From the NCBI GenBank assembly GCA_964571065.1, contig CAZNBI010000003.1, forward strand, positions 4,707-40,724: a stretch of DNA of 36,018 bases, given 5' to 3'. Under the pieces are notes generated by a model. The model worked only from the letters and a program-made list of their open reading frames with translations, ran no database searches and had not been told where the DNA came from. Source of the stretch: an uncultured Rhodobacterales bacterium. Its GTDB lineage: Bacteria > Pseudomonadota > Alphaproteobacteria > Puniceispirillales > GCA-002684695. How positions within the stretch are numbered: the first letter of the stretch is position 1; every line of letters begins with the position of its first letter. The position numbers and the translations under genes are program-made. Below, in pieces: positions 1-29,936 of this stretch.

Positions 1-710
1 CCCATTAATTCAGATTGTTTTTTTATTTGTTTAAACTTTTTACCTCTTGCGATGACACCGCCCATCATTACATCACTATGTCCAGTAACATACTTTGTGT
101 ATGATTCAATGACAGCATCCACGCCTAAATCCAGAGGATTTTGCCCTAAAATTGTTGCCCATGTATTGTCTGTAATCGTTGTAACATTAAATGATTTTGC
201 AACTTTAGTTAATGAGGGTAGATCTTGAAGTTCAAAGGTATGTGAACCAGGGCTTTCAAAATATATTAGGGATGTACTATTTTTTATAAGTTTTTTAAAG
301 TTTTGGGATTTAATTCTTGGTTCATAAAATTCTACTTCTACTCCAATTGATGGTAAAAATTTTGTAATAAAATTTCTAGTGCTTCCGTATGCACTGTCGG
401 ATACTAGAATATGATTTCCACTTTTTACAAAAGAGAGTATTCCAACTACTGCTGCTGCTAAGCCAGAAGGAGCTATAATGGATCCGTCTGCATTATAAAG
501 CTCAGCCATGGTGTCACAAAATGCTTGAGATGTAGGAGTGCCCGTCCTCCCATATTGAAATTTTACTTTTTTATTTCGACGTGATTTTGAATCTGGATAT
601 AAAATAGTTGAAGCATGATAAACTGGTGGATTTGGTATACCAAAATTAGTTTTTGGTTTCAGACCTGTATGTGTAATTTTAGTGGAAGATATAGTGTTTT
701 TTTTACTCAT
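1..710 (-). CDS. metC: Cystathionine beta-lyase-like Cys/Met-metabolism PLP enzyme. Only the N-terminal ~236 codons are present; the gene continues past the left window edge.
   Basis: Hand translation of the reverse strand from ATG (710-708) gives MSKKNTISSTKITHTGLKPKTNFGIPNPPVYHASTILYP... and stays open to position 1. It contains ...DAVIESYTKYVTGHSDVMMGGVIARGK, the PLP-lysine motif of the Cys/Met PLP family. It is absent from the ORF track because the window truncates it. Confidence 0.75.
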   Translation of the reverse strand, partial: MSKKNTISSTKITHTGLKPKTNFGIPNPPVYHASTILYPDSKSRRNKKVKFQYGRTGTPTSQAFCDTMAELYNADGSIIAPSGLAAAVVGILSFVKSGNHILVSDSAYGSTRNFITKFLPSIGVEVEFYEPRIKSQNFKKLIKNSTSLIYFESPGSHTFELQDLPSLTKVAKSFNVTTITDNTWATILGQNPLDLGVDAVIESYTKYVTGHSDVMMGGVIARGKKFKQIKKQSELM

Positions 711-1982: not shown

Positions 1983-2801
1983 ATGGAATTTAAAAATAAA
2001 AATGTTGTAATTACTGGTGCTTCAAGAGGTATAGGTCTTGGCATCGCAAAAAAATTAGCTTCAGAAGGAGCAAATATTGCTGTTCTTGCAAAAACAGATA
2101 CACCCCACCCAAAATTACCAGGTACAATTCATTCTGCCGTTGAAGAAATTAAGGAATTTGGGACCGAGGCATTAGCAATTAAGACTGATATTAGATTTGA
2201 AGATCAAATCGAAAATGCTATTCAAAATGTGGCAGATAAATTTGGTTCAATTGACATTTTGATAAATAATGCGAGTGCTATTGGTTTGTTTAATAGTGAA
2301 ACTCTTCCAACAAAACAATTTGATCTTATGAATGATATCAATTTAAGAGGTACATACCTTTGTTCAAAAATTTGTTTACAATATCTCAAAAAGTCTAATA
2401 ATCCGCATATTTTAAATATGAGCCCACCTATAAGTCTTAAACCTAAATGGTTTGAAAATTTTACAGCATATACAATCGCTAAGTTTGGAATGAGTATGTG
2501 TGTTATAGGAATGTCAGCGGAATATAAGAAATACAATATTGCTGTAAATGCACTATGGCCAAAAACTGCTATTGATACAGCAGCTATTAGGATGCTTGGA
2601 GGTGTAGTTAGGCCAGAACAATGCCGCAAAGTAGATATTTTGGCTGATGCATCATTTTTTATTTTAAGAAGAGATAGTAATAACTTTACTGGAAAATTTT
2701 ATCTTGATGAAGAAGTGCTTGCTGAAGAGGGAATTACAGATTTAGAAAAGTATAGTGTAAAAAAAGGTGAAAAATTATTTACAGACTTATATTTAGATTA
2801 A
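1983..2801 (+). CDS. SDR-family oxidoreductase, HSDL2-like
   Basis: The Rossmann motif TGASRGIGLGIA and the YxxxK catalytic motif (YTIAK) are present. The segment KTDTPHPKLPGTIHSAVEEI is typical of the HSDL2-like SDR subgroup. Confidence 0.85.
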   Translation: MEFKNKNVVITGASRGIGLGIAKKLASEGANIAVLAKTDTPHPKLPGTIHSAVEEIKEFGTEALAIKTDIRFEDQIENAIQNVADKFGSIDILINNASAIGLFNSETLPTKQFDLMNDINLRGTYLCSKICLQYLKKSNNPHILNMSPPISLKPKWFENFTAYTIAKFGMSMCVIGMSAEYKKYNIAVNALWPKTAIDTAAIRMLGGVVRPEQCRKVDILADASFFILRRDSNNFTGKFYLDEEVLAEEGITDLEKYSVKKGEKLFTDLYLD

Positions 2802-2823: not shown

Positions 2824-4488
2824 TTGGAAAAGGTTTGGTTAAAAAGCTATCCGAAGGGAGTTCCTTCAGAAATCAATTTAGATGAATTTCAATCATTAGT
2901 CGATTTGTTTAATCAAACATGTGATCGATTTAATGATCAGCCCGCTTTTACTAATTTTGGAGTGGAAGTTAGTTTTAGAGAGTTAAAATCACATTCTGAA
3001 AATCTTTCTTCTTTTTTATTGAATGAGTTCAATCTAAAAAAAGGGGATAGGGTTTCAATCATGATGCCCAATATTTTACAATATCCAATTTCAACTTTTG
3101 GAATTTTAAAATCAGGACTTGTTATAGATAATATAAATCCTTTATTTACGCATCGTGAATTGAAGGCACAGTTAAATGATTCAGGATCTGAGACAATTAT
3201 TATAGCTGAAAATTTCGCATCAAATTTACAATCAATACTAAAAGAAACATCAATTAAAAATGTTTTAATTACCTCTGTTGGTGAATTTTTAGGATTAAAA
3301 GGAATTTTGATTAATTTTGTTTTAAGGAAAATTAGGAAAATGGTTCCAAAATACTCTTTGCCCAACGCTGTAAATTTTAAAGATGCAATTAACATTGGAG
3401 CAAAACATAAATTTAAAGAGCAAAAAATTGATAAAGAAGATATTGCATTTCTTCAGTATACGGGAGGAACAACAGGTGGAGTTAAAGCTGCAATCTTGTC
3501 CCATAGAAATGTTTTAGCTAATGCTATTCAGGTAAGGGAATGGTTAGGTGAAAATTTAAAATTTGGTGAAGATCTAGCTATTTGTGCACTACCACTTTAC
3601 CATATATTTGCATTGACTTGTAATTCAGTAGTCTATTTTTACTTTGGCGCAAATAATATTCTAATAACAAATCCAAGGGACATTCCAGGTTTTATTAAAA
3701 TTTTGAAAAAATACAAGTTTACGTTCATTAGTGGTGTAAACACTTTATTTAATAAGCTATTGGAGGATAAAAATTTTCAGGATTGTGACTTTTCAAAACT
3801 CAATATTACAATTGCAGGTGGAATGCCTGTACAAAAATCTGTTGGTGATCGTTGGCAAAAAACCACTGGTTGCTTAATGGTAGTTGGTTATGGTCTCTCT
3901 GAAACTGCACCAGCGGCGTCTATAGATCCAATTGATGGGGAAACTTTTAGTGACACTATAGGGCTGCCTTTACCATCAACTGAAATGTCTATTCAAGATG
4001 ATAAAGGAAAAATTCTATCAGCTGAGAAAGAGGGTGAAATATGTATTAGAGGTCCTCAAGTCATGAGAGGTTACTGGAACAATGAAAAAGACACCAAAAA
4101 TGTTTTAACAAAAGATGGTTGGTTTAAAACTGGTGATATAGGAAAAATGAGAAAGGATGGATACTTTCAAATTGTTGATAGAAAAAAAGATATGATAATT
4201 GTTTCTGGATTTAATGTGTATCCAAGTGATATTGAGGAAGTTGCAATGCAGCATCAAAAAATCTTAGAGGCTGGCTGTATCGGAGTTTCTGGAAAAAATG
4301 GGCAGGAGCTAGTAAAATTGTTTGTATCTGTAGTAGAGGGTGAAACTATTACTGAAGATGAAATTTTAGAACATTGTAGAAATAATCTTACAGCTTATAA
4401 GGTTCCAAAATTACTTGAAATTGTTGATGAAATACCTAAATCGAATGTAGGCAAAATATTAAGAAGAGAATTAAGGGAGAAAAAATAA
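2824..4488 (+). CDS. fadD: Long-chain fatty-acid--CoA ligase
   Basis: The start is TTG, preceded by AGGGAGAG. The N-terminus MEKVWLKSYPKGVPSEI is FadD-like. The AMP-binding motif YTGGTTGGVKAA is present, along with C-terminal GWFKTGDIG and PKSNVGKILRREL. Confidence 0.9.
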   Translation: MEKVWLKSYPKGVPSEINLDEFQSLVDLFNQTCDRFNDQPAFTNFGVEVSFRELKSHSENLSSFLLNEFNLKKGDRVSIMMPNILQYPISTFGILKSGLVIDNINPLFTHRELKAQLNDSGSETIIIAENFASNLQSILKETSIKNVLITSVGEFLGLKGILINFVLRKIRKMVPKYSLPNAVNFKDAINIGAKHKFKEQKIDKEDIAFLQYTGGTTGGVKAAILSHRNVLANAIQVREWLGENLKFGEDLAICALPLYHIFALTCNSVVYFYFGANNILITNPRDIPGFIKILKKYKFTFISGVNTLFNKLLEDKNFQDCDFSKLNITIAGGMPVQKSVGDRWQKTTGCLMVVGYGLSETAPAASIDPIDGETFSDTIGLPLPSTEMSIQDDKGKILSAEKEGEICIRGPQVMRGYWNNEKDTKNVLTKDGWFKTGDIGKMRKDGYFQIVDRKKDMIIVSGFNVYPSDIEEVAMQHQKILEAGCIGVSGKNGQELVKLFVSVVEGETITEDEILEHCRNNLTAYKVPKLLEIVDEIPKSNVGKILRRELREKK

Positions 4489-14171: not shown

Positions 14172-15365
14172 ATGTTACGTAAATTTTTTTTAGTTCTGAT
14201 ATTTTTTGTATTTTCAAATCAAACCTATGCAGAGAAATTTATTGATCTTGGGCCTAGTTTAAAATTAAGTTACAAAACTGGAAATATTGACACAAATACA
14301 TTCAATGGTTTTGCATCTGATATTTCATTTTTTGATAAATTTAATAATAACGAACTCATTGGAAATGCGAAAACACTTAAAATCGAAAGCCAAAAAAATA
14401 AAGATGGGCAAGTTATTATCAATTTATTTTCATTAAGTGAAATATTTGCATATGATGATGAATTTGGATTTGAAATTGTAATTGATAAGATATCTATAAG
14501 AGACTTCAATTCAGCTATTTTAAAAGACGATTTTGCAGAAGATGGTGCAAACTACGATTTGCTAAAGCATAAAAACTTTAGTTTTAATATATCAGGAGTT
14601 AATTTTAAAAATAACGAATTTGATTTAGGAATTAAAAAAATAAGTCTTCCAAAAATTAAATATGGAAAACTATCATCAGGTGAAGAATTTGCCCAAGAGA
14701 CCTCTTTTGAAATTAAAGAAATAAGCTTTACTGCAAATCCAAGTAATATTGATTTGCTGCCACTGAATGTCATTCTAGCTTCAATTGGTCAGCAATCGCT
14801 AACCGTAGACTTAAATACTTATAGCGAAGTATTTGATAAGGGATTAATGCTGAAAATTATTTCGAAATTAGGACTAAATATTATCGGGGGAGCAGCATTG
14901 AATTTAGAATTAGATTACTCTGTGCCAATTGAAACATTTAGTTACTTTTCAAATAATCAATCTCTAATAGATGAATTACAAACCCAGAATTTTGAAAACT
15001 TAGATAATTTTAATAATGAAATACTAATGGAACTAGGTAAGATCCAAATAAATAAAGTTATCTTTCAAATTGAAGATTTAGGTGTAAGAAAACCTCTAAT
15101 TATAATGGCTGCATCTAATATGGGAATGTCAGAAGAAGATGTTATTAATATGTCAAATGAAATGATACAATCAGTTCTTTTCCCTTTTATTCCAGTTAAT
15201 GCAGAAAAATTTGCTGACAGTATATCAAAATTTGTTGAGCTAGGAGGTAAACTTACATTTAGCATCAACCCTCAAAATCCTTTGCCTATTATCTCCTCAA
15301 TGGGGTTACTCGTAATGCCTGATTTGGCTATTGAGTCATTGGGTATCAAATTGTTAGCAGAATAA
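14172..15365 (+). CDS. Hypothetical exported protein (397 aa), no family recognised
   Basis: This is a long ORF with an N-terminal signal peptide (MLRKFFLVLIFFVFSNQTYA|EK). The rest is hydrophilic with no catalytic motif I can name. Codon usage and composition match the neighbouring genes. Confidence 0.6.
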   Translation: MLRKFFLVLIFFVFSNQTYAEKFIDLGPSLKLSYKTGNIDTNTFNGFASDISFFDKFNNNELIGNAKTLKIESQKNKDGQVIINLFSLSEIFAYDDEFGFEIVIDKISIRDFNSAILKDDFAEDGANYDLLKHKNFSFNISGVNFKNNEFDLGIKKISLPKIKYGKLSSGEEFAQETSFEIKEISFTANPSNIDLLPLNVILASIGQQSLTVDLNTYSEVFDKGLMLKIISKLGLNIIGGAALNLELDYSVPIETFSYFSNNQSLIDELQTQNFENLDNFNNEILMELGKIQINKVIFQIEDLGVRKPLIIMAASNMGMSEEDVINMSNEMIQSVLFPFIPVNAEKFADSISKFVELGGKLTFSINPQNPLPIISSMGLLVMPDLAIESLGIKLLAE

Positions 15366-16666: not shown

Positions 16667-17494
16667 ATGAATGAAAATAATATATTTTTGCCTGCAAAAC
16701 TTCCAAGTAATGAAAGTAGACGTCTAGAGGCTGTCAGAAGAACAGGTGAGTTAGATGTAGATAATAAAGATTTGTTTATTGTATTTAATGAACTGGCAAA
16801 ACAAATTTCAAATATGCCTGTCAGTTATACTGGACTTATGGATCAAGACAGACAGTTTTTTTTATGTCATATTGGTATGCCAGATGATCTCCCAGATAGT
16901 ATTCCAAGAGAATCAACATTTTGTCAATTTGCATTAGGAAGCACAAAACCTTTAATTGTTAACGATTGTAAAAATGATGAAAGATTTAAAAATCATCCAA
17001 TTGTGTGTGGTCCTCCATATGTTACTTTTTATGGAGGTTTCCCAATTATTAATGAGGCAGGATATATTTTAGGAACATTATGTGTAACAGACACAAAACA
17101 AGATGCAAATTTATCTATTAGCCAAATTGAATTACTAACAAAGTTAACTGGCCGTCTTGCGCATCAATTAGATATTCAAACACAACAAAGAGAATTTACC
17201 GCTTCAAAAACTATTGATTTATTAAATAAATCTATAAAGCATTTACCTCAATTCAATATTTCAAATCTTATCGGTTTTTTAACTGTTATAAGTGGTGGTC
17301 AAGTTGACAGAGAAACAGTTAATTTTTTAACTATGAATAAACTTTTAGATAAAAATGGTTTTTTAACTCCACTTGCAAGAAAAATACAAAAAGACCTTGG
17401 GTTTGATACAAGTGTTCATAAAAAAATTATGTTTAATAATGATGAAATATCTTCGAATTTAGATAACATGATCAGTGAACTAGAGAATTTATAA
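16667..17494 (+). CDS. Standalone GAF-domain protein with an uncharacterised ~110-aa C-terminal region
   Basis: The N-terminal ~165 aa match the GAF pattern usually seen in front of signalling output domains (ESRRLEAVRRTGELD..., FCQFAL...PLIVNDCKNDERFKNHPIV...YVTFYGGFPIINEAGYILGTLCVTD). No kinase, GGDEF or classic HTH motif follows. Confidence 0.75.
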   Translation: MNENNIFLPAKLPSNESRRLEAVRRTGELDVDNKDLFIVFNELAKQISNMPVSYTGLMDQDRQFFLCHIGMPDDLPDSIPRESTFCQFALGSTKPLIVNDCKNDERFKNHPIVCGPPYVTFYGGFPIINEAGYILGTLCVTDTKQDANLSISQIELLTKLTGRLAHQLDIQTQQREFTASKTIDLLNKSIKHLPQFNISNLIGFLTVISGGQVDRETVNFLTMNKLLDKNGFLTPLARKIQKDLGFDTSVHKKIMFNNDEISSNLDNMISELENL

Positions 17495-17838
17495 TGTATG
17501 CAGTAGTCTATCAATTTAAATTCCCGAGTATCAGTGAAGCTAAAGTCGCAGCTGGATTTTGTTCTGAATCCTTAGGCGGAAAAATTTCAGAATATGACTT
17601 TTTAGGTCTAAATATCTTAATAAGTAAAAATGGTGACTTAAATATTAATGTGAAATTTGAGGATACAAATTCTTTGAAAAAATTTGAAAATGATACAAAT
17701 AAATTATTTAATGACCTACGAAATAGTTTTGTTTTTAAGGAGACTAAATTTGCAGGTGTTTATGCTTATTCATTCGAAAAAGAAGCTGTTTCAACTGAAA
17801 TTCAGCTAACTGGACCTGCATATATTAAAAATAACTAA
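17494..17838 (+). CDS. Hypothetical small protein (114 aa), possibly a ferredoxin-like/ABM-like alpha+beta fold
   Basis: The start is translationally coupled to the GAF gene (TAATG at 17492-17496). The residue pattern resembles the 101-aa ORF at 18288-18593 (see findings). The fold assignment is a guess from the strand/helix pattern only. Confidence 0.55.
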   Translation: MYAVVYQFKFPSISEAKVAAGFCSESLGGKISEYDFLGLNILISKNGDLNINVKFEDTNSLKKFENDTNKLFNDLRNSFVFKETKFAGVYAYSFEKEAVSTEIQLTGPAYIKNN

Positions 17839-18018
17839 CTATTAAATCTTTAATTTCTTTAGCCGTAATATATATATATTTTAATAAATACATAGTATTT
17901 GTTGACATTATGATAAAATAATTCAAATGTATCTATGCAAAGACGTAAAATTGATTGCATTAAATTAAAAATTGGAATGGTCTCGTCTTCATTCTAATGA
18001 AATTGGAGACATAAATAA
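17839..18018 (+). promoter_or_regulatory. Promoter region plus long 5' leader of cspA, with competing stem options
   Basis: This 180-nt spacer is long for this window. AAGACG (17940-17945) can pair with CGTCTT (17984-17989), or GAATG (17975-17979) can pair with CATTC (17990-17994). The direct repeat AAATTGGA occurs at 17969-17976 and 18000-18007, and the second copy contains the SD GGAG. Confidence 0.4.
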
Positions 18019-18228
18019 ATGGCAACAGGCACTGTTAAATGGTTTAATCCACGTAAAGGCTATGGTTTTATTGAACCTGAAGGTGGTGATAATGACGTGT
18101 TTGTACATATTTCCGCTGTTCAGAATTCAGGATTGGATCTTCTAAAAGAAGGTCAAAAGGTTGAATTTACGCTAGAAGAACAGAAAAATGGAAAAAGTGC
18201 GGCTGAAAATTTAAAAATCGTTGAATAA
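18019..18228 (+). CDS. cspA: Cold-shock-domain protein (CspA family)
   Basis: The sequence [34 protein letters not shown] carries the RNP1 (KGYGFI) and RNP2 (VFVHI) motifs. It is 69 aa, with the SD GGAG 8 nt upstream. Confidence 0.95.
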
Positions 18229-18287
18229 ACTTTTCATTTTATAATAAATTATATTTAATAACCCATACAAACAATTTTTATGGGTAA

Positions 18288-18593
18288 CTATGATTGTTTT
18301 ACGTGAGTATCTGATAAAAGCTTTCCTCTAACCGAAGTCATTTTATGTGTAAAAGCATTTTTATGAATTTCGGTGTAGTTTTTTAGTGCGTCTATAACTT
18401 TTTTTTGAATTGTTTCCTCATTATATTCAAAAACAATCAATCTTGTTACTTCTCCTGATAAATAGCACCTAACACGATCGCACCCATTATCTAAAGCTAT
18501 TTTTTCCATCATATTTTCAGCTAGGGCTTGCGAAGCTATAGCCTCAGATGAATTAATATATGTAACTGTTATTATGCTGACATATTTTGACAT
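18288..18593 (-). CDS. Hypothetical small protein (101 aa), probable paralogue of the 17494-17838 product
   Basis: This ORF is convergent with cspA. It has the same length class as the 114-aa ORF and shares pattern elements with it (early S-SEA, central hydrophobic strand ..I.V.F/E.., late F..K.T...G). Confidence 0.55.
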   Translation of the reverse strand: MSKYVSIITVTYINSSEAIASQALAENMMEKIALDNGCDRVRCYLSGEVTRLIVFEYNEETIQKKVIDALKNYTEIHKNAFTHKMTSVRGKLLSDTHVKQS

Positions 18594-18625: not shown

Positions 18626-19048
18626 CTAATGCTTTTTAAAATATGAAACGTAAAGGGATAAGGTTCCCAGGATAAAAAAGGTTATAAAAACTGGCCAGAA
18701 AATTACATTTTTGTCAAAAATCATCTGTTTCAGTTGGATTATTATAAGGATATAAAATCCTATTGATGTTCCAAATAAGATTCTTTTTGCAGCACTTGTT
18801 ACATTTCTATGTGCTAGTATAAGGAGAATACCTATAAATAAACTACCACCTCCCATCAATTCACGGTGTATAGTCGCTATTCTAATTTCCTTCTCACTAG
18901 CTTGAGGAAAAATTTTAATGCTAATAAAATCAGGAAAAAATAAAAATGTTAATCCTAAAATTAACATAGTTAAACTAGATAAAAATAGTATTCCTCTAAC
19001 AGTCATAATTCTACCTATTTTTAAGTATTCTTTACGACCCAATTTCAA
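18626..19048 (-). CDS. Small integral membrane protein (about 4 TM helices), unknown function
   Basis: Four hydrophobic segments are visible: GILFLSSLTMLILGLTFLFF, GGGSLFIGILLILA, ILFGTSIGFYILIIIQL and IFWPVFITFFILGTLSLYV. The true start may be the internal Met at MTVRGILF. Confidence 0.6.
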   Translation of the reverse strand: MKLGRKEYLKIGRIMTVRGILFLSSLTMLILGLTFLFFPDFISIKIFPQASEKEIRIATIHRELMGGGSLFIGILLILAHRNVTSAAKRILFGTSIGFYILIIIQLKQMIFDKNVIFWPVFITFFILGTLSLYVSYFKKH

Positions 19049-19115
19049 TCTTTTTTATTTTATTTAGTTAATTATCTATATATATTGACGTAAAAAATAA
19101 TAAAAATCAAAAAAC

Positions 19116-19280
19116 ATGTATTTAAACAATTCTTATTTAATGTTATTAGGCTTTCTTAAATATTGCTACCAAAAAATTTTTAAGCCTAAATCATTAAAGG
19201 ATAATATAATAGGAAGTTTTGTAGGAATTTGTATAGTATTCTCATTAATAGTTTTATATTTAAGATTTTTTGACTTATGA
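19116..19280 (+). CDS. Candidate small membrane protein (54 aa), below the ORF-track cutoff
   Basis: Hand translation gives MYLNNSYLMLLGFLKYCYQKIFKPKSLKDNIIGSFVGICIVFSLIVLYLRFFDL*, with a C-terminal TM-like segment. It fills most of an unusually long 249-nt spacer. There is no clear SD and no recognised family, and AT-rich DNA easily yields such ORFs. Confidence 0.2.
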   Translation: MYLNNSYLMLLGFLKYCYQKIFKPKSLKDNIIGSFVGICIVFSLIVLYLRFFDL

Positions 19281-19297
19281 AAATTAAATAAATTTAT

Positions 19298-22987: not shown

Positions 22988-24334
22988 ATGATGAATATTG
23001 TAATTGTTGGAAGGCCAAATGTAGGTAAATCTACACTATTTAATAGGCTGATAAATAAAAAATTATCTATCGTATCAGAAATTCAAGGCACTACCAGAGA
23101 TTATAAGGAATTTGAAACTTCAATTGCAGACTTAAAGTTTAAAATAACTGATTTGGCTGGTTTTGAATTTGATTTTAAAGATGAGTTAATCAAAAGCATA
23201 AATAATATGATTTATGATCAGATCAAAAAAGCAAATTTGATTATAATGATGTTTGATGCAAATATTGGCATAACCTCAGAAGATATCAGAATTTCTAAGT
23301 TTTTAAAAAAATACAATAAAATAGTTATTTTATTAGGTAACAAGTCAGAAAAGTTAAATTCAAAATATAATGTTTCAGAGGGTTGGTCGCTTGGTTTTGG
23401 AGAACCTATACCTTTTTCTGCTGTTCATGGGATTGGTATTGATGAATTATATGAAAGAATAAAAAAAGAAGTTAAAAGGCCTATATTAAATTCAGATGAA
23501 AAAATTGAAAGTAATAATTCTAGTAAACAATCTTCAATTAAAATTACTTTCATTGGAAAACCTAACACTGGCAAATCAACTTTAATTAATAAGTTACTTG
23601 GATACAATAGAATGATTACTTCTTCATTGAGTGGTACTACTCATGATTCCATAGAAATGGATTTTGTTTGGAAGAATTATGAATTTACAATTGTTGATAC
23701 AGCTGGAATGAGAAAAAAGTCTAAGATTAAAGAAGAGCTTGAATACAGATTTGTTGGCTCTTCTCTTCGAGCTATAAAACTTACAAATATAGCTGTGCTT
23801 GTTCTTGATAGTAGTGAAGAACTAAATAAACAAGACTTATCAATTGCACGCTGGGTAACAGAAGAGGGCAGAGCGCTTATTTTATGCCTTAACAAATGGG
23901 ACTTAATTCAAGAAAAACAAAAAACTTTTAATAAACTGTTATCGCGATTAAACAGGTCATTACCTAACATGACCCATTCTAAAATAGTAAAAACAAGTGG
24001 CAAATTCGGTTTGGGAATAGATAATATTTTTGAAGTTGCAATAGAAGTCTATAATAAATGGAATAGAAGATTACAAACTAGCGATCTAAATAATTGGTTT
24101 GGTAAAGTTCTAGAAGAACATCCACCACCAATGTCAGGTGGGAAAAGAATAAAATTACAGTATATATCTCAAGTTAAATCTAGACCACCTACATTTATAA
24201 TTTTTTGTAATAAACCTGATGGGTTGCCAGACTCATATATTAGGTATTTAACATCAAAACTTAGAGAAAATTTCAATTTTGAAGGTGTGCCTTTGAGAAT
24301 TAATTTAAGAAAAAAGAAAAACCCCTACGTTTAA
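22988..24334 (+). CDS. der: Ribosome-biogenesis GTPase Der (EngA)
   Basis: There are two tandem G domains, GRPNVGKSTLFNRL/DLAG/NKSE and GKPNTGKSTLINKL/DTAGMRKK/NKWD. The KH-like C-terminus reads IKLQYISQVKSRPPTFIIFCN. Confidence 0.95.
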   Translation: MMNIVIVGRPNVGKSTLFNRLINKKLSIVSEIQGTTRDYKEFETSIADLKFKITDLAGFEFDFKDELIKSINNMIYDQIKKANLIIMMFDANIGITSEDIRISKFLKKYNKIVILLGNKSEKLNSKYNVSEGWSLGFGEPIPFSAVHGIGIDELYERIKKEVKRPILNSDEKIESNNSSKQSSIKITFIGKPNTGKSTLINKLLGYNRMITSSLSGTTHDSIEMDFVWKNYEFTIVDTAGMRKKSKIKEELEYRFVGSSLRAIKLTNIAVLVLDSSEELNKQDLSIARWVTEEGRALILCLNKWDLIQEKQKTFNKLLSRLNRSLPNMTHSKIVKTSGKFGLGIDNIFEVAIEVYNKWNRRLQTSDLNNWFGKVLEEHPPPMSGGKRIKLQYISQVKSRPPTFIIFCNKPDGLPDSYIRYLTSKLRENFNFEGVPLRINLRKKKNPYV

Positions 24335-24337
24335 CAT

Positions 24338-25045
24338 CTAAAAATTAGGATATTTTAATCTTTCGCCATTATTATTAAAACCTTCCTCACAGATTTTAAG
24401 TATTTCTTCACCTACTTTACTAGGATGTTTTAGAGTATCTGGGTTTTCACCTGGATATGCCTTTTCACGCATTTGTGTCTTTGTTGCACCTGGGTCATAT
24501 AAATTAATTTTTAATTTGGTTTCTTTCATCTCAGATGACCAAGCTCTTACCATGCTATCAAGGCCAGCTTTACTTATTGCATATGCCCCCCAAAAAGGCC
24601 TAAAACCTTCAGATGCACCAGAGGTTATGAAAATAGCTTTACCATTTTCACTTTCCAGGAGCAGTTTTTCGAAATGTTTTATTAACAACCAATTAGCTGA
24701 TAAATTTACATTTATACTGATTTGCCAATCTTTATCTGACAAATGGGATAAGGGTGTAAGGTTATGTAAGTAAGCAGCATTAGAAATTAAGATATCAAGT
24801 TTGCCCCACCTTTCTTTTATTTCTTGTGAAAGATCATAAATTTTATTTAAATCACTTAAATCAAATTGGACACATGTGGCATTACCACCACTCAAATGAA
24901 TTTTGTCACTTATTTCTTCAAGTGCTCCAATTGTTCTACCTAAAAGAATTACGTGAATATCTTCCTTTGCTAAGGCTAGAGATATTTCCTTGCCAATGCC
25001 TCTAGTAGCTCCTGTAATTAATGCAATTCTTTTGTTTTTAGCCAT
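24338..25045 (-). CDS. SDR-family oxidoreductase (235 aa)
   Basis: TGATRGIGKEISLALA, NAA and YAISK motifs are present. It is convergent with der, separated by a 3-nt gap. Confidence 0.85.
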   Translation of the reverse strand: MAKNKRIALITGATRGIGKEISLALAKEDIHVILLGRTIGALEEISDKIHLSGGNATCVQFDLSDLNKIYDLSQEIKERWGKLDILISNAAYLHNLTPLSHLSDKDWQISINVNLSANWLLIKHFEKLLLESENGKAIFITSGASEGFRPFWGAYAISKAGLDSMVRAWSSEMKETKLKINLYDPGATKTQMREKAYPGENPDTLKHPSKVGEEILKICEEGFNNNGERLKYPNF

Positions 25046-25054
25046 AATGAAATC

Positions 25055-25264
25055 TTAAAATCTATATTGGATAATCCCCAGTAAAACAGTTATCAGTAAA
25101 TTGTGGTACATTATAGTCTCTTTTTTTGAATACTAAAGCTTTATATGTTCCTTCAAGGGAAATCTGTGTTGTAAAGAATGCAAGCCTAATTGAGTTAGTA
25201 CTGCAACATCTTTATGGTTAAAAATTCCAAAAACACCACACTCTTCATTTAGTTTGTCATTCAT
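25055..25264 (-). pseudogene. purF: Relic of purF (glutamine phosphoribosylpyrophosphate amidotransferase). The first ~34 codons are recognisable; after that come frame loss, a premature stop, and loss of roughly 400 codons.
   Basis: The reverse strand from ATG 25264 reads [34 protein letters not shown], then FPLKEHIKL and TAG (25135-25133). This is the PurF propeptide plus catalytic-Cys motif (EECGVFGI) followed by GLHSLQHR. The expected GQEG continues only in another frame (..[10 protein letters not shown]..). The relic sits directly downstream of cvpA, the classic cvpA-purF position. Confidence 0.75.
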
Positions 25265-25291
25265 ATTTTAAACTTATAGACCTAAACTATT

Positions 25292-25798
25292 TTATTCGTT
25301 CTTAAATATTTCATAAGGTATATTTGGGGAAATTATCTTTGATAAGGAATTACTTAATTCTACTGTATATGAGTTTTTTATATTTAATGGGAATTTATTG
25401 ATGTCCTCGATTAAATAAATTGTAAATATAAAAATTAAATAAATTAAAAGCAAACCTCTAATCAAACCAAAAAAAGAGCCCAAAAAATGGTCAATAAAAT
25501 TTGAGTATTTAAGAACCAAAGGATATATTAAAATCTTATTCAAAATAGATAAAAATATTACAAAAACAATAAATGGTATAATCCAACTAATCAAATAAGC
25601 TAAAAGCTCAATTTGGACAAAACTTTTCGAATATTTAAAAACATTTAGAAATAAGGCATTTGATAAAAAATAAGCAATTATCCATATGATAACAGTTAAA
25701 GACTCTTTAATAAATCCACGCCAGGTCGATGCCAAAACTGAGAGTAATATCACTAGAAGTGAAATAAGATCAATAATTTTAATGTTACTAAAAATCAT
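25292..25798 (-). CDS. cvpA: CvpA-family inner-membrane protein (colicin V production protein homologue)
   Basis: Its four TM helices and two motif segments align with E. coli CvpA as I recall it. DLISLLVILLSVLASTWRGFIKESLTVIIWIIAYFLS matches D.A....I.....L.RGF.RE.L.L..W, and IDHFLGSFFGLIRGLLLIYLIF matches DR.LG..FG.LRG.L. The start overlaps the mlaF stop (TAATG). Confidence 0.85.
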   Translation of the reverse strand: MIFSNIKIIDLISLLVILLSVLASTWRGFIKESLTVIIWIIAYFLSNALFLNVFKYSKSFVQIELLAYLISWIIPFIVFVIFLSILNKILIYPLVLKYSNFIDHFLGSFFGLIRGLLLIYLIFIFTIYLIEDINKFPLNIKNSYTVELSNSLSKIISPNIPYEIFKNE

Positions 25799-26553
25799 TA
25801 AGTTTTATTTCGTGCATCACTATCAATATTAATAAATTCATTTAAAGTTTTATTTTTACTTTTCTGTAGATCTTGTTTTTCTCCATGCCATATTATTTTT
25901 CCTTCATTAATCATGGCAACTTTATTTGCAATTTTATTTAAGCTACTTAAATCATGAGTTATTGTAATTGAAGTGCTGCCAAGTCTTTTTACATTATCAA
26001 TAATTAAACTATTTATTTTGTTTCCTGTAACTGGATCTAAGCCAGAGGTTGGTTCATCAAAAATAAGTATTTCTGGCTCATCAATAATAGCCCTTGCAAT
26101 TGCAACTCTTTTTTGCATTCCTCCTGATAGTTGTGATGGAAATTGGTACATTATGGAATTCGAAAGTCCAACCTGATTTAATGAAAATTCAACTTTCTCC
26201 TTTAATTGACTAAACTTGAAAAAATTATTTTGACTTAATTTAAAAGATATATTTTCCCAAATCCTCATAGAGTCAAAAAGTGCGTTCCCTTGGAATGTCA
26301 CTCCTATGCTTTTCAAAATTAAATCTTGTTCGTCTCTTTTGATAGAAAAAAAATTTTTATTTTTAATAAGTATTTCTCCTTGACTAGGTTTTAAAATACC
26401 AAGTACACATTTCATTAACAGAGATTTTCCTGATCCTGATTTTCCAATAATTACTAGGGATTCCCCTTTAGTAATTTTTAAATTTATTTTTTTTAGAATA
26501 TTTTTATTATCAAAGTTTTTTGATAAATTGAAAATTTCTATTATGCTCTTCAT
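25798..26553 (-). CDS. mlaF: MlaF-like ABC transporter ATP-binding protein
   Basis: It has Walker A GKSGSGKS, the signature LSGGMQKRVAIARA, Walker B ILIFDEPTSGLD and the H-loop ITITHD. The ORF track starts at TTG 26565, an 11-nt overlap with mlaE. The ATG at 26553, 1 nt after the mlaE stop, is preferred. Confidence 0.85.
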   Translation of the reverse strand: MKSIIEIFNLSKNFDNKNILKKINLKITKGESLVIIGKSGSGKSLLMKCVLGILKPSQGEILIKNKNFFSIKRDEQDLILKSIGVTFQGNALFDSMRIWENISFKLSQNNFFKFSQLKEKVEFSLNQVGLSNSIMYQFPSQLSGGMQKRVAIARAIIDEPEILIFDEPTSGLDPVTGNKINSLIIDNVKRLGSTSITITHDLSSLNKIANKVAMINEGKIIWHGEKQDLQKSKNKTLNEFINIDSDARNKT

Positions 26554-26554
26554 T

Positions 26555-27331
26555 TTAGTTACCAAAGAAAATTGTAGTAATAAAATAATTTGAAATCAGA
26601 ATTAAAATAGATGATATAACAACAGCATTTGTTGTAGCCTTTCCAACACCTCGAGCGCCTTGGCCACAGTTAAATCCTTGGAAACATCCAATTAATGTAA
26701 TTATGAAACCAAAAACTGTGGCTTTTACTAGTCCTTGAAAAACATCAATTAATTCTAAATACTCAAGTGTTCTATCAATATAAATATAAGAATTAAAACC
26801 TAATTGATATACTCCTATTATCCAGCCACCCATAATACCAATTATGTCTCCTATTAAAACTAAAACTGGTAAGCAAATAATACCTGCTAAAATTCTTGGT
26901 ATTACCAAAAATTGAATTGGTCTTGTAGACATAACATATAACGCGTCTATTTGTTCAGATACTTTCATTGTTCCAATCTCTGCTGCAATTGAAGCACCTA
27001 CCCTGCCTGCAACCATAAGTCCTGCTAATACTGGACCTAATTCTCTTGTTACTGATAGAACAACTACTGTTGCAACTGCATCCTCTGCCCCTAACCTTGC
27101 AAAGCCAGTGTATGATTGAATGGCTAATACCATTCCAGAAAAAATAGCTGTTAAGCCAACAACAGGTAATGACAAATAGCCAATTTCAAAAATCTGTCTA
27201 AATAATTGATTGCCAAAAAAAGGTTTTCTAAATATCCAATAAAAAAATTCACTAGCAAAGAATATTAATCTACCAATATTTGATAATGAAATTAAAGTAT
27301 ATTTACCCAAATTTTGAATAAGATTTGTCAC
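26555..27331 (-). CDS. mlaE: MlaE-family ABC transporter permease
   Basis: The 258-aa sequence has the MlaE pattern: FYWIFRKPF, ELGPVLAGLMVAGRVGASIAAEIGTMKVSEQIDAL and the C-terminal GARGVGKATTNAVV. Confidence 0.9.
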   Translation of the reverse strand: MTNLIQNLGKYTLISLSNIGRLIFFASEFFYWIFRKPFFGNQLFRQIFEIGYLSLPVVGLTAIFSGMVLAIQSYTGFARLGAEDAVATVVVLSVTRELGPVLAGLMVAGRVGASIAAEIGTMKVSEQIDALYVMSTRPIQFLVIPRILAGIICLPVLVLIGDIIGIMGGWIIGVYQLGFNSYIYIDRTLEYLELIDVFQGLVKATVFGFIITLIGCFQGFNCGQGARGVGKATTNAVVISSILILISNYFITTIFFGN

Positions 27332-28439: not shown

Positions 28440-29936
28440 TTAAAATCCTTCAGGAATATTGTCATTGCGTATAAAATTTCCAAATTTTGTAAATCTATCA
28501 TTAAAAGATAAATTTATAGTTCCTATTGGTCCGTGGCGTTGTTTAGCAATTATTATTTGAGCCTGACCTTTGATTTTTTCATAATAAGATTTCCAATTTT
28601 CATATCTTTCGTTAAGCTGCTCTTCTGTTTCACCACCTTTTCTTATTGGCTCCATCTTTTCATGATAATAATCTTCCCTAAATACAAACATAACAACATC
28701 AGCATCTTGTTCAATAGAACCACTTTCCCTTAAATCAGCAAGATTAGGTCTTTTATCCTCTCTTTGTTCAACAGCACGACTTAATTGAGATAATGCAACT
28801 ACTGGTATATTTAATTCTTTTGCAATAGCTTTTAGTCCTCTTGTAATGGTTGATAATTCTTGAACTCTATTTTCATTATTTTTATTAAGTCCCATGATTA
28901 ACTGGATATAGTCTATAACTATTAGACCTAAGTTACCATTAAGTTGTCTCTTTAGTCTTCTAGACCGGCTTGCAATTTGCGCAATAGATATTGCTGGGGT
29001 TTCATCAATATAAAAAGGGGCCTCATAAATACTAGTATTTGCTTTAATTAATTTATTATAAGCATTTTCATTTAAATTTTTTCCCGTTCTTAAATGCTCT
29101 GAGTCAATGTTTGATCTTTCAGATAGTATTCTTGTAGCAAGTTGCACTGAAGACATTTCTAAAGAAAAAAATAAAACAGGTCTGGGAGCCACTTTGTTAT
29201 TTGGTGATGCAACATGAAAAGCAATATTTGTAGCTAAAGCGGTTTTCCCCATCCCAGGTCTCCCGGCAATTATAAGGAGATCTGAAGCATGCAATCCACC
29301 AAGTTTTGAATTAAGATCAATAAGGCCAGTATCTAATCCTGAGAGATTGCCGTCATGTTTCAGTGTTGTGTCTATTTGTTTTATAGTATCAGTCAGCACT
29401 ATATCAAAATTTTTAGGCCCTTGCTCTAAAAGGCCATTTTCAGCGAGTCCATAAAGTTTACTTTCAGCTTGTTCAATTTGTTTTTCTGAAATATCCTCAA
29501 TTTTAAGATCAGATGCATCATTTATCATTTCAGAGCCTATTCGAATTAACTCTCTTCTAAAGAAGCACTCTTTAATTTCCAGCGCATAGTCTTTAATCGC
29601 TGAAAAATTTCCAACACCGTCAATTAGGTTTTGCAAATAATTCCTATTGCTTTCAATTTCAGGAAAATTTATCTCATCTTCTGAAAAAAATGCCTTTAAA
29701 GTTATTGGGCTTGCCAATTGCCCTCTATTTATGAGTTTACTGCAAGAACTAAATATCTTTTTATGCAAAGGGTCATAAAAGTGATTTTCTTTAATGCTTT
29801 CTGAAATTTTATCAAATGATTCATTATCATATAATATTGATCCTAAAACATTTTGTTCAGCCTCGATATTTTGAGGCAACTCTCTATTACTTTGGAAATT
29901 TTTTCCAATTTCATTTTTTTGAATTTCTGAAGACAT
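28440..29936 (-). CDS. dnaB: Replicative DNA helicase DnaB
   Basis: The N-terminal domain reads PQNIEAEQNVLGSIL. It has Walker A GRPGMGKTALATNIA, Walker B LIVIDYIQL and the motifs SQLSRAVEQR and IAKQRHGP. The ORF track starts at TTG 29954; the ATG at 29936 (MSSEIQ...) is preferred. Confidence 0.95.
   Translation of the reverse strand: MSSEIQKNEIGKNFQSNRELPQNIEAEQNVLGSILYDNESFDKISESIKENHFYDPLHKKIFSSCSKLINRGQLASPITLKAFFSEDEINFPEIESNRNYLQNLIDGVGNFSAIKDYALEIKECFFRRELIRIGSEMINDASDLKIEDISEKQIEQAESKLYGLAENGLLEQGPKNFDIVLTDTIKQIDTTLKHDGNLSGLDTGLIDLNSKLGGLHASDLLIIAGRPGMGKTALATNIAFHVASPNNKVAPRPVLFFSLEMSSVQLATRILSERSNIDSEHLRTGKNLNENAYNKLIKANTSIYEAPFYIDETPAISIAQIASRSRRLKRQLNGNLGLIVIDYIQLIMGLNKNNENRVQELSTITRGLKAIAKELNIPVVALSQLSRAVEQREDKRPNLADLRESGSIEQDADVVMFVFREDYYHEKMEPIRKGGETEEQLNERYENWKSYYEKIKGQAQIIIAKQRHGPIGTINLSFNDRFTKFGNFIRNDNIPEGF

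Follow-up and report, generated by a model that had tools for sequence, protein, structure and literature searches.

In E. coli, cvpA and purF form an operon, and in Alphaproteobacteria the gene order is cvpA-purF-SDR. The stretch of 36,018 nucleotides analysed here (the window) shares this order and orientation, but its middle gene is cut to a stub of 203 nt, located at 25264..25062 on the minus strand. What this stub is, how it arose, and whether its host still carries out the committed step of de novo purine synthesis are the questions that the locus raises. Upstream of the stub is cvpA (25292..25798, minus strand), encoding a protein of 168 amino acids (Pfam Colicin_V, 1.7e-19). Downstream is a conserved neighbour, a YciK-like SDR gene (24338..25045, minus strand; NCBIfam NF006509, 8.7e-52; Pfam adh_short, 7.4e-46). 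The initial annotation of the window described the 246-nt spacer between the two genes (25046..25291) as holding a decayed relic of purF in its syntenic slot, and this description is borne out by relatives that carry a full purF of 456-465 amino acids exactly there. We put the probability that 25264..25062 is a non-functional pseudogene remnant of purF, made by one internal deletion, at about 0.93.

The initial annotation took the genome to be of SAR11 type. The best SDR matches among species-representative genomes are AG-891-F06 (L001, 96% identity), AG-899-J15 (L003, 97%) and LRMED-246 (L002, 74%), the first two being single-cell genomes and the third a MAG; these matches and the record titles place the window instead in low-GC SAR116/Puniceispirillales. 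Judged by its sequence, the host is a low-GC SAR116 bacterium, and the GC content of the window, 30.8%, fits the Low-GC (LGC) subclade, an uncultured group with a GC content of about 30.5% and spacers below 22 bp (PMC8547437). In addition to the genes named above, the window encodes an amino-acid ABC transporter, fadD/A/B, an acyl-CoA dehydrogenase, a sulfurtransferase, an MR/MLE enzyme, a GAF protein, an Ldh_2 protein, BamB, Der, MlaF/E, Alr, DnaB, ribosomal proteins L9/S18/S6, FabD/G/F and MltG. NCBIfam and Pfam annotation revealed no further pur gene and no salvage gene within the window. ORFs at 14172..15365 (plus), 17494..17838 (plus), 18288..18593 (minus) and 18626..19048 (minus), encoding 101-397 amino acids, have no Pfam match at E<=1e-5, and the segments 17839..18287 and 19049..19297, which contain no ORF of 90 or more amino acids, are long considering how short the spacers of this genome are. 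The alr and dnaB ORFs of the mechanical listing overlap by 62 nt (28440..28501); because the same overlap recurs in the gene calls of all related loci, the true alr start is probably further downstream than listed.

The reading frame reported in the initial annotation was confirmed on the sequence: an ATG at 25264 within the 246-nt spacer opens a 43-codon ORF (25133..25264, minus strand) that stops at TAG 25135..25133 and consists of 34 purF codons followed by 9 out-of-frame codons, FPLKEHIKL*. The first 34 codons (25163..25264, minus strand) form the purF 5' fragment, which encodes an 8-residue propeptide, the catalytic Cys9 and the stretch ending in GLHSLQHR. The proposal that this peptide is a PurF N-terminus held up. 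BLASTP against the intact PurF of L001 gave 32/34 identities over residues 1-34 (E=1e-20), and among 18,950 NCBIfam models the peptide matched TIGR01134 (purF) only, at profile positions 1-26 (E=1e-3). The TIGR01134 score of the stub, 18.4-18.6 bits, compares with a curated cut-off of 350 bits, and a Pfam scan detected no domain in the stub. The purF 3' fragment (25062..25162, minus strand) comprises most of codon 424 to codon 456 and the stop TAG at 25064..25062, and is out of frame with the 5' fragment. This second minus-strand frame carries the PurF C-terminus (…SLEGTYKAL…CFTGDYPI*), with 28/33 identities to residues 424-456 of L001 PurF (BLASTP, E=4e-19). The same frame had been described as a 'GQEG-like' continuation of the N-terminal part; it is genuine C-terminus, so that what the gene has lost is its interior and not its 3' end. 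A further string, GIIQYRF, does lie in the first frame just before TAA 25057..25055 as had been noted, but it is C-terminal DNA read in the wrong frame and not a trace of IGHVRY.

To place the remnants on a known enzyme we used the intact sister PurF, which matches the B. subtilis PurF structures 1GPH/1AO0 with E=1.6e-134; since it maps onto them, the stub can be seen to keep mature residues 1-26 and about 416-447. The propeptide and the catalytic Cys are kept (MNDKLNEE-C9-GVFGI), Cys9 aligning to mature B. subtilis Cys1 via the sister protein. The stub thus shares with B. subtilis-type PurF (1GPH/1AO0; TIGR01134) the propeptide and Cys nucleophile motif (EECGVFGI…GLHSLQHR) and the C-terminal CFTG.YP, but just 34 + 33 of the 456 codons are left, in two frames. 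Unlike that enzyme, it has no oxyanion and glutamine-binding segments and no PRTase domain (…DDSIVRGTT…). A complete glutaminase domain (RGQEGAGI…, HNGN oxyanion segment) is absent, codons 35-423 being deleted, and the PRTase domain with its PRPP-binding loop (DDSIVRGTT) lies wholly inside the missing DNA. With this domain content the stub cannot be an enzyme.

A purF gene of 456-465 amino acids lies between cvpA and SDR in L001, L002, L018, L019, L027, L035, L037 and L038-L047, whose SDR proteins are 72-98% identical to that of the window (62% in L035); in L001 and L002 the gene, encoding 456 and 463 amino acids respectively, is exactly in the cvpA-SDR slot. Gaps between cvpA, purF and SDR in intact relatives are 10-16 nt. 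In blastn the window aligns to L001 in two co-linear blocks (95.4% identity), between which 1,168 bp of L001 have no counterpart, the cvpA and SDR flanks being about 95% identical at the DNA level. Inspection of the junction located it at 25162..25163 (minus strand), where CAACACAGA abuts TTTCCCTTGAAGG. Microhomology at the junction amounts to 0 bp in comparison with L001; a GAAGG 5-mer is found near both breakpoints and at neither. Codons 35-423 and one further base were lost, corresponding to residues 27-415 in mature B. subtilis numbering; the earlier estimate of roughly 400 absent codons was right, the exact count being 389. The deletion removes most of the Ntn glutaminase domain and all of the PRPP-binding domain. 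Because 1,168 = 3x389+1, the fusion of codon 34 to codon ~424 shifts the reading frame, and translation from the old start therefore ends after 43 codons.

The sequences on both sides of the stub can also be followed in the relatives. Between the stub and SDR lie the original 16 nt that separated purF from SDR, with the ribosome-binding region of SDR (25046..25061, minus strand); they are co-linear with intact relatives. On the other side, the purF ribosome-binding region (25265..25273, minus strand) has decayed, with AAGG changed to AAGT, a 1-nt deletion and a C to T change relative to intact relatives; the 1-nt deletion is the sole 1-nt gap of the window-L001 blastn alignment. Next to it, at 25274..25291 (minus strand), alignment with L001, L018 and L039 identified the former 3' tail of cvpA (NSLGL and the old stop codon), which is now non-coding. 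In the deletion clade an AAA to TAA nonsense change at 25294..25292 (minus strand) has taken away the 6 last cvpA codons, leaving 168 amino acids vs the 174-amino-acid CvpA ending in ...EKNSLGL* that all purF-intact close relatives keep. This trim may be hitch-hiking decay, or it may have an effect on CvpA.

A gap of this kind might be the product of an assembly collapse, a concern that the initial annotation had raised, or of a chimera formed during single-cell amplification, in a genome that in fact has a full-length purF. Single-cell amplification produces chimeric junctions, and the close relatives of the window are known mostly as single-cell amplified genomes. Against this, the same fusion ORF and breakpoint occur on at least 36 contigs, drawn from many independent, unamplified metagenome assemblies that different assemblers produced. 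The exact 43-amino-acid fusion ORF was found on 23 contigs and nine variants with one or two substitutions on 13 more, bringing the total to ten variants on 36 independent contigs from metagenome assemblies, with ENA, TARA, JGI, Logan and NCBI among the sources. All ten contigs that were fetched (L008-L017) show cvpA (168 amino acids), the ORF and SDR at identical spacing. The exact 22-nt junction string is present in 8/10 of them, and L010 and L016 share the breakpoint but differ by a single C to A change just after it; the signature CAACACAGATTTCC[C/A]TTGAAGG is usable as a genotype marker. In addition, the topology of the SDR tree groups the deletion contigs in a single clade, and these contigs have linked derived changes in common, namely SDR MAKNK vs MAMKK/MAMNK, the cvpA nonsense change and the decay of the ribosome-binding site. 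Because these fixed differences are linked, a common error in every assembly is implausible, and the artefact explanation, to which we assign a negligible chance, is refuted.

Deletion-bearing contigs are known from short-read data only, at lengths of up to 40.7 kb, and the sub-lineage that they represent is present in many ocean metagenomes, including TARA Oceans. Very close relatives with an intact purF are L018, L019, L020, L024 and L027, and all ten long contigs of the species (L038-L047, 0.2-1.2 Mb), which were found via ribosomal protein S18, are purF-intact. In these long-read contigs of nearly chromosomal size (ENA ERZ285480xx) many genes are split, among them purF in L038, L043 and L045; the splits look like long-read indel error and not like extra pseudogenes. 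Examination of the related cvpA-SDR intervals, a check proposed with the initial annotation, revealed intact purF at the slot and a dS between deletion and intact lineages of 0.07-0.15. The dS values are 0.06-0.15 among intact relatives and 0.02-0.06 within the deletion clade. Since the divergence between deletion and intact lineages is no greater than that among intact relatives, the deletion marks a diversified sub-lineage of one species-level population. The 203-nt stub has acquired 7 fixed substitutions on the deletion branch (3.5%), which is roughly comparable to half the pairwise dS; this similarity suggests that the lesion occurred early in the history of that branch. The deletion arose once, in the ancestor of this sub-lineage of a low-GC SAR116 species-level population.

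The substitutions in the stub carry the mark of relaxed constraint. Read in the old purF frame, the fixed changes are 6 non-synonymous and 1 synonymous, compared with 2:9 at the same codons in intact relatives (Fisher p=0.013, from small counts). All seven are changes to A or T, and they include a conserved His to Asn change in TDHCFTGDYP. Variants of the ORF include G10S, which adjoins the catalytic Cys, and H33N, and the density of amino-acid polymorphism in the ORF, measured on contigs chosen via the ORF sequence itself, is 0.050 vs 0.008-0.015 in cvpA, SDR and der (3-6 times denser). One ORF variant, P0129, keeps the ancestral Tyr2, and Y2N must on this account have come after the deletion. 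By these substitution patterns the stub is evolving neutrally, its constraint having been relaxed after the lesion.

Alternatively, the stub could be kept by selection, either because it encodes a new 43-amino-acid micro-protein or because, once transcribed, it serves the downstream SDR gene as a leader or regulatory element. About 200 nt have survived a divergence on the order of the branch dS, although spacers in this genome mostly measure less than 22 bp (PMC8547437); in other lineages, by contrast, this spacer is down to 62-132 nt. All ORF variants (10/10) keep the 43-codon length; this constancy is explained by the variant cluster, which can hold only ORFs of similar length. No variation was seen among 11 contigs in the 87 nt that follow the ORF, but the same holds for 43% of the 87-nt windows along the locus, and we rejected zero polymorphism in this segment as a sign of selection. 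Both the decay of the ribosome-binding site and the 3-6-fold excess of amino-acid polymorphism over the neighbouring genes speak against a retained product. An Rfam scan of the whole window returned no family match, and a scan of 24300-26700 for promoter and terminator motifs found no more than in shuffles. We consider selective retention very improbable. The course of events is that of a neutrally decaying purF remnant: a one-step internal deletion without microhomology occurred in purF, once, in the ancestor of the low-GC SAR116 sub-lineage. The catalytic domains were lost and the frame was shifted, after which the sub-lineage diversified while the stub drifted neutrally, taking on AT-biased and mostly non-synonymous changes, a decayed ribosome-binding site and, nearby, the cvpA nonsense trim.

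We also surveyed the slot in other lineages, sampling SDR orthologue clusters and their genomic contexts. The purF gene is present in L027 (SDR 90% identical to that of the window), L037 (73%), L002, L021, L022 and L029 (72-75%), L035 (62%), L048 and L049. It is absent from L028 (SDR 80%, cluster of 64 sequences), where the spacer is 218 nt (130..347), from L023 (SDR 72%; 132 nt, 2005..2136), from L030 (SDR 70%, on a 74.7-kb contig; 65 nt, 3936..4000) and from L031-L034 (SDR 68%, 9 contigs; 62 nt, 3939..4000 in L031). A neighbour-joining tree of SDR and Der, used for its topology only, scatters the purF-minus lineages among purF-plus ones, and purF is present in the outgroup L035. Because empty and intact slots interleave on this tree, four or more independent losses from the slot would be needed under parsimony; at least three low-GC SAR116 lineages besides that of the window have no purF there. 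L049 (ENA ERZ907897, a 2.3-kb contig of 27% GC) encodes a 469-amino-acid PurF that is 72% identical to SAR116 PurF (cluster of 243) and shows the purF-SDR order; its SDR is 44% identical to that of the window, and it looks like a different low-GC marine lineage.

Traces of purF remain in some of the empty slots. In L023, the last 100 nt before the SDR start align at 62% identity to the 3' end of L022 purF (z=4.2, 0/1000 dinucleotide shuffles), and this 3' trace scores +5, the best of 110 control segments reaching -6. An unanchored local alignment of the L023 spacer with whole purF genes was not significant, since AT-rich DNA aligns easily by chance, and was replaced by the position-anchored tests. 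L030 and L031 have a weak KEE[C/S]G-like 5' trace (p about 0.009 vs one of five targets, before correction), which in L030 is co-linear with a retained ATG. In the L028 spacer no consistent purF trace was detected, the anchored 5' and 3' tests giving z from -0.9 to 3.3 depending on target and anchor, and a relic claim for this spacer was dropped for their inconsistency.

An empty slot would mean auxotrophy only where purF function is not kept elsewhere in the genome, be it by a translocated copy, a paralogue or a horizontally acquired gene. Redundancy of this kind has in its favour that about 36-40 kb of any deletion-bearing genome has been read, and that hundreds of 71-72% identical PurF clusters (473-474 amino acids) of other marine Alphaproteobacteria are possible donors. 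Yet every purF examined in low-GC SAR116 and neighbouring groups sits in the cvpA-purF-SDR slot and none elsewhere, and these streamlined genomes have few paralogues (PMC8547437). A search of 5.8 billion proteins with the intact PurF as query returned a single cluster, of 306 sequences, that reaches 90% identity or more, and the matches that follow it are at 76% or below. We calibrated PurF against Der identity: a Der identity of 90% corresponds to 97% in PurF, and 68% to 75%. For the L028 lineage, with Der at 79%, the expected PurF identity is about 86%, and no PurF was found in the 77-98% band. Because that band is empty although the SDR of this lineage is well sampled (64 cluster members), the indirect evidence suggests that at least the L028 lineage has no vertically inherited purF anywhere. 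For the window clade the band is uninformative, since a copy that had moved elsewhere would share ~98% identity with the sister allele. An estimate of the purF-minus frequency from cluster sizes was dropped as uninformative; PurF has 306 members and the neighbouring genes from 247 (DnaB) to 750 (SDR).

We regard retention of purF function elsewhere as possible but rather unlikely, and we lean towards loss of function: the window clade would probably be unable to make phosphoribosylamine enzymatically and would depend on purine salvage. In the same vein, it seems somewhat likely that the window lineage no longer carries out the committed step of de novo purine synthesis and relies on salvage for its purines, and that such loss has recurred in other low-GC SAR116 lineages. 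That loss of the committed step is a recurrent and still-segregating trait of low-GC SAR116, with at least four losses and with spacers of 246, 218, 132 and 62-65 nt as stages of erosion, we put forward tentatively. Dependence on purine salvage is ecologically plausible because purines are released by Prochlorococcus and genes for purine use occur in about 49% of SAR116 genomes (PMC11698098).

A literature search found no earlier report of purine auxotrophy in SAR116 or bacterioplankton. Among host-associated or reduced bacteria, for example Mollicutes, Borrelia, CPR and DPANN, the loss of pur genes has led to dependence on external purines. As in those organisms, loss of the committed step would force salvage, but they are symbionts or parasites under drift, whereas the SAR116 lineage is free-living and planktonic, under strong purifying selection (PMC8547437). 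Comparative genomics papers on SAR116 (PMC8547437, PMC12262181) make no mention of purine or purF, and the ocean purine cross-feeding paper (PMC11698098) makes none of purF or auxotrophy. Adaptive gene loss in streamlined marine plankton is the subject of the Black Queen hypothesis (PMC3315703), and auxotrophies for vitamins and amino acids exist in SAR11 and are predicted in SAR116 (PMC12262181). The present case resembles Black Queen cases in that a costly biosynthetic function is putatively lost from an abundant free-living oligotroph whose neighbours leak the product, and in that the purF loss is polymorphic among close relatives. It differs from the known Black Queen auxotrophies in that de novo purine synthesis is affected, a pseudogene intermediate is preserved and the case is known from the purF slot alone.

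A pseudogene in itself is a known kind of object; a cleanly documented loss in progress at the committed step of a core pathway is rare. To our knowledge, pseudogenes are rare in streamlined plankton genomes. For this reason the stub, with intact and deleted alleles ~0.1 dS apart, catches gene loss in progress. The junction sequence provides a concrete marker with which to track the purF-minus genotype in metagenomes. If purF is missing genome-wide, a globally distributed SAR116 lineage, and probably several others, would be unable to begin making purines and must import them, and for some taxa the purine cross-feeding network (PMC11698098) would shift from an optional source of nutrients and energy to an obligate dependency. 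If the loss is indeed recurrent, sizeable populations of a free-living heterotroph that ranks among the most abundant in the ocean would have to scavenge purines and would be bound to neighbours that exude them, such as Prochlorococcus. This would help to explain why the low-GC SAR116 subclade stays uncultured, and we suggest the addition of purines to the medium as an aid to its isolation.
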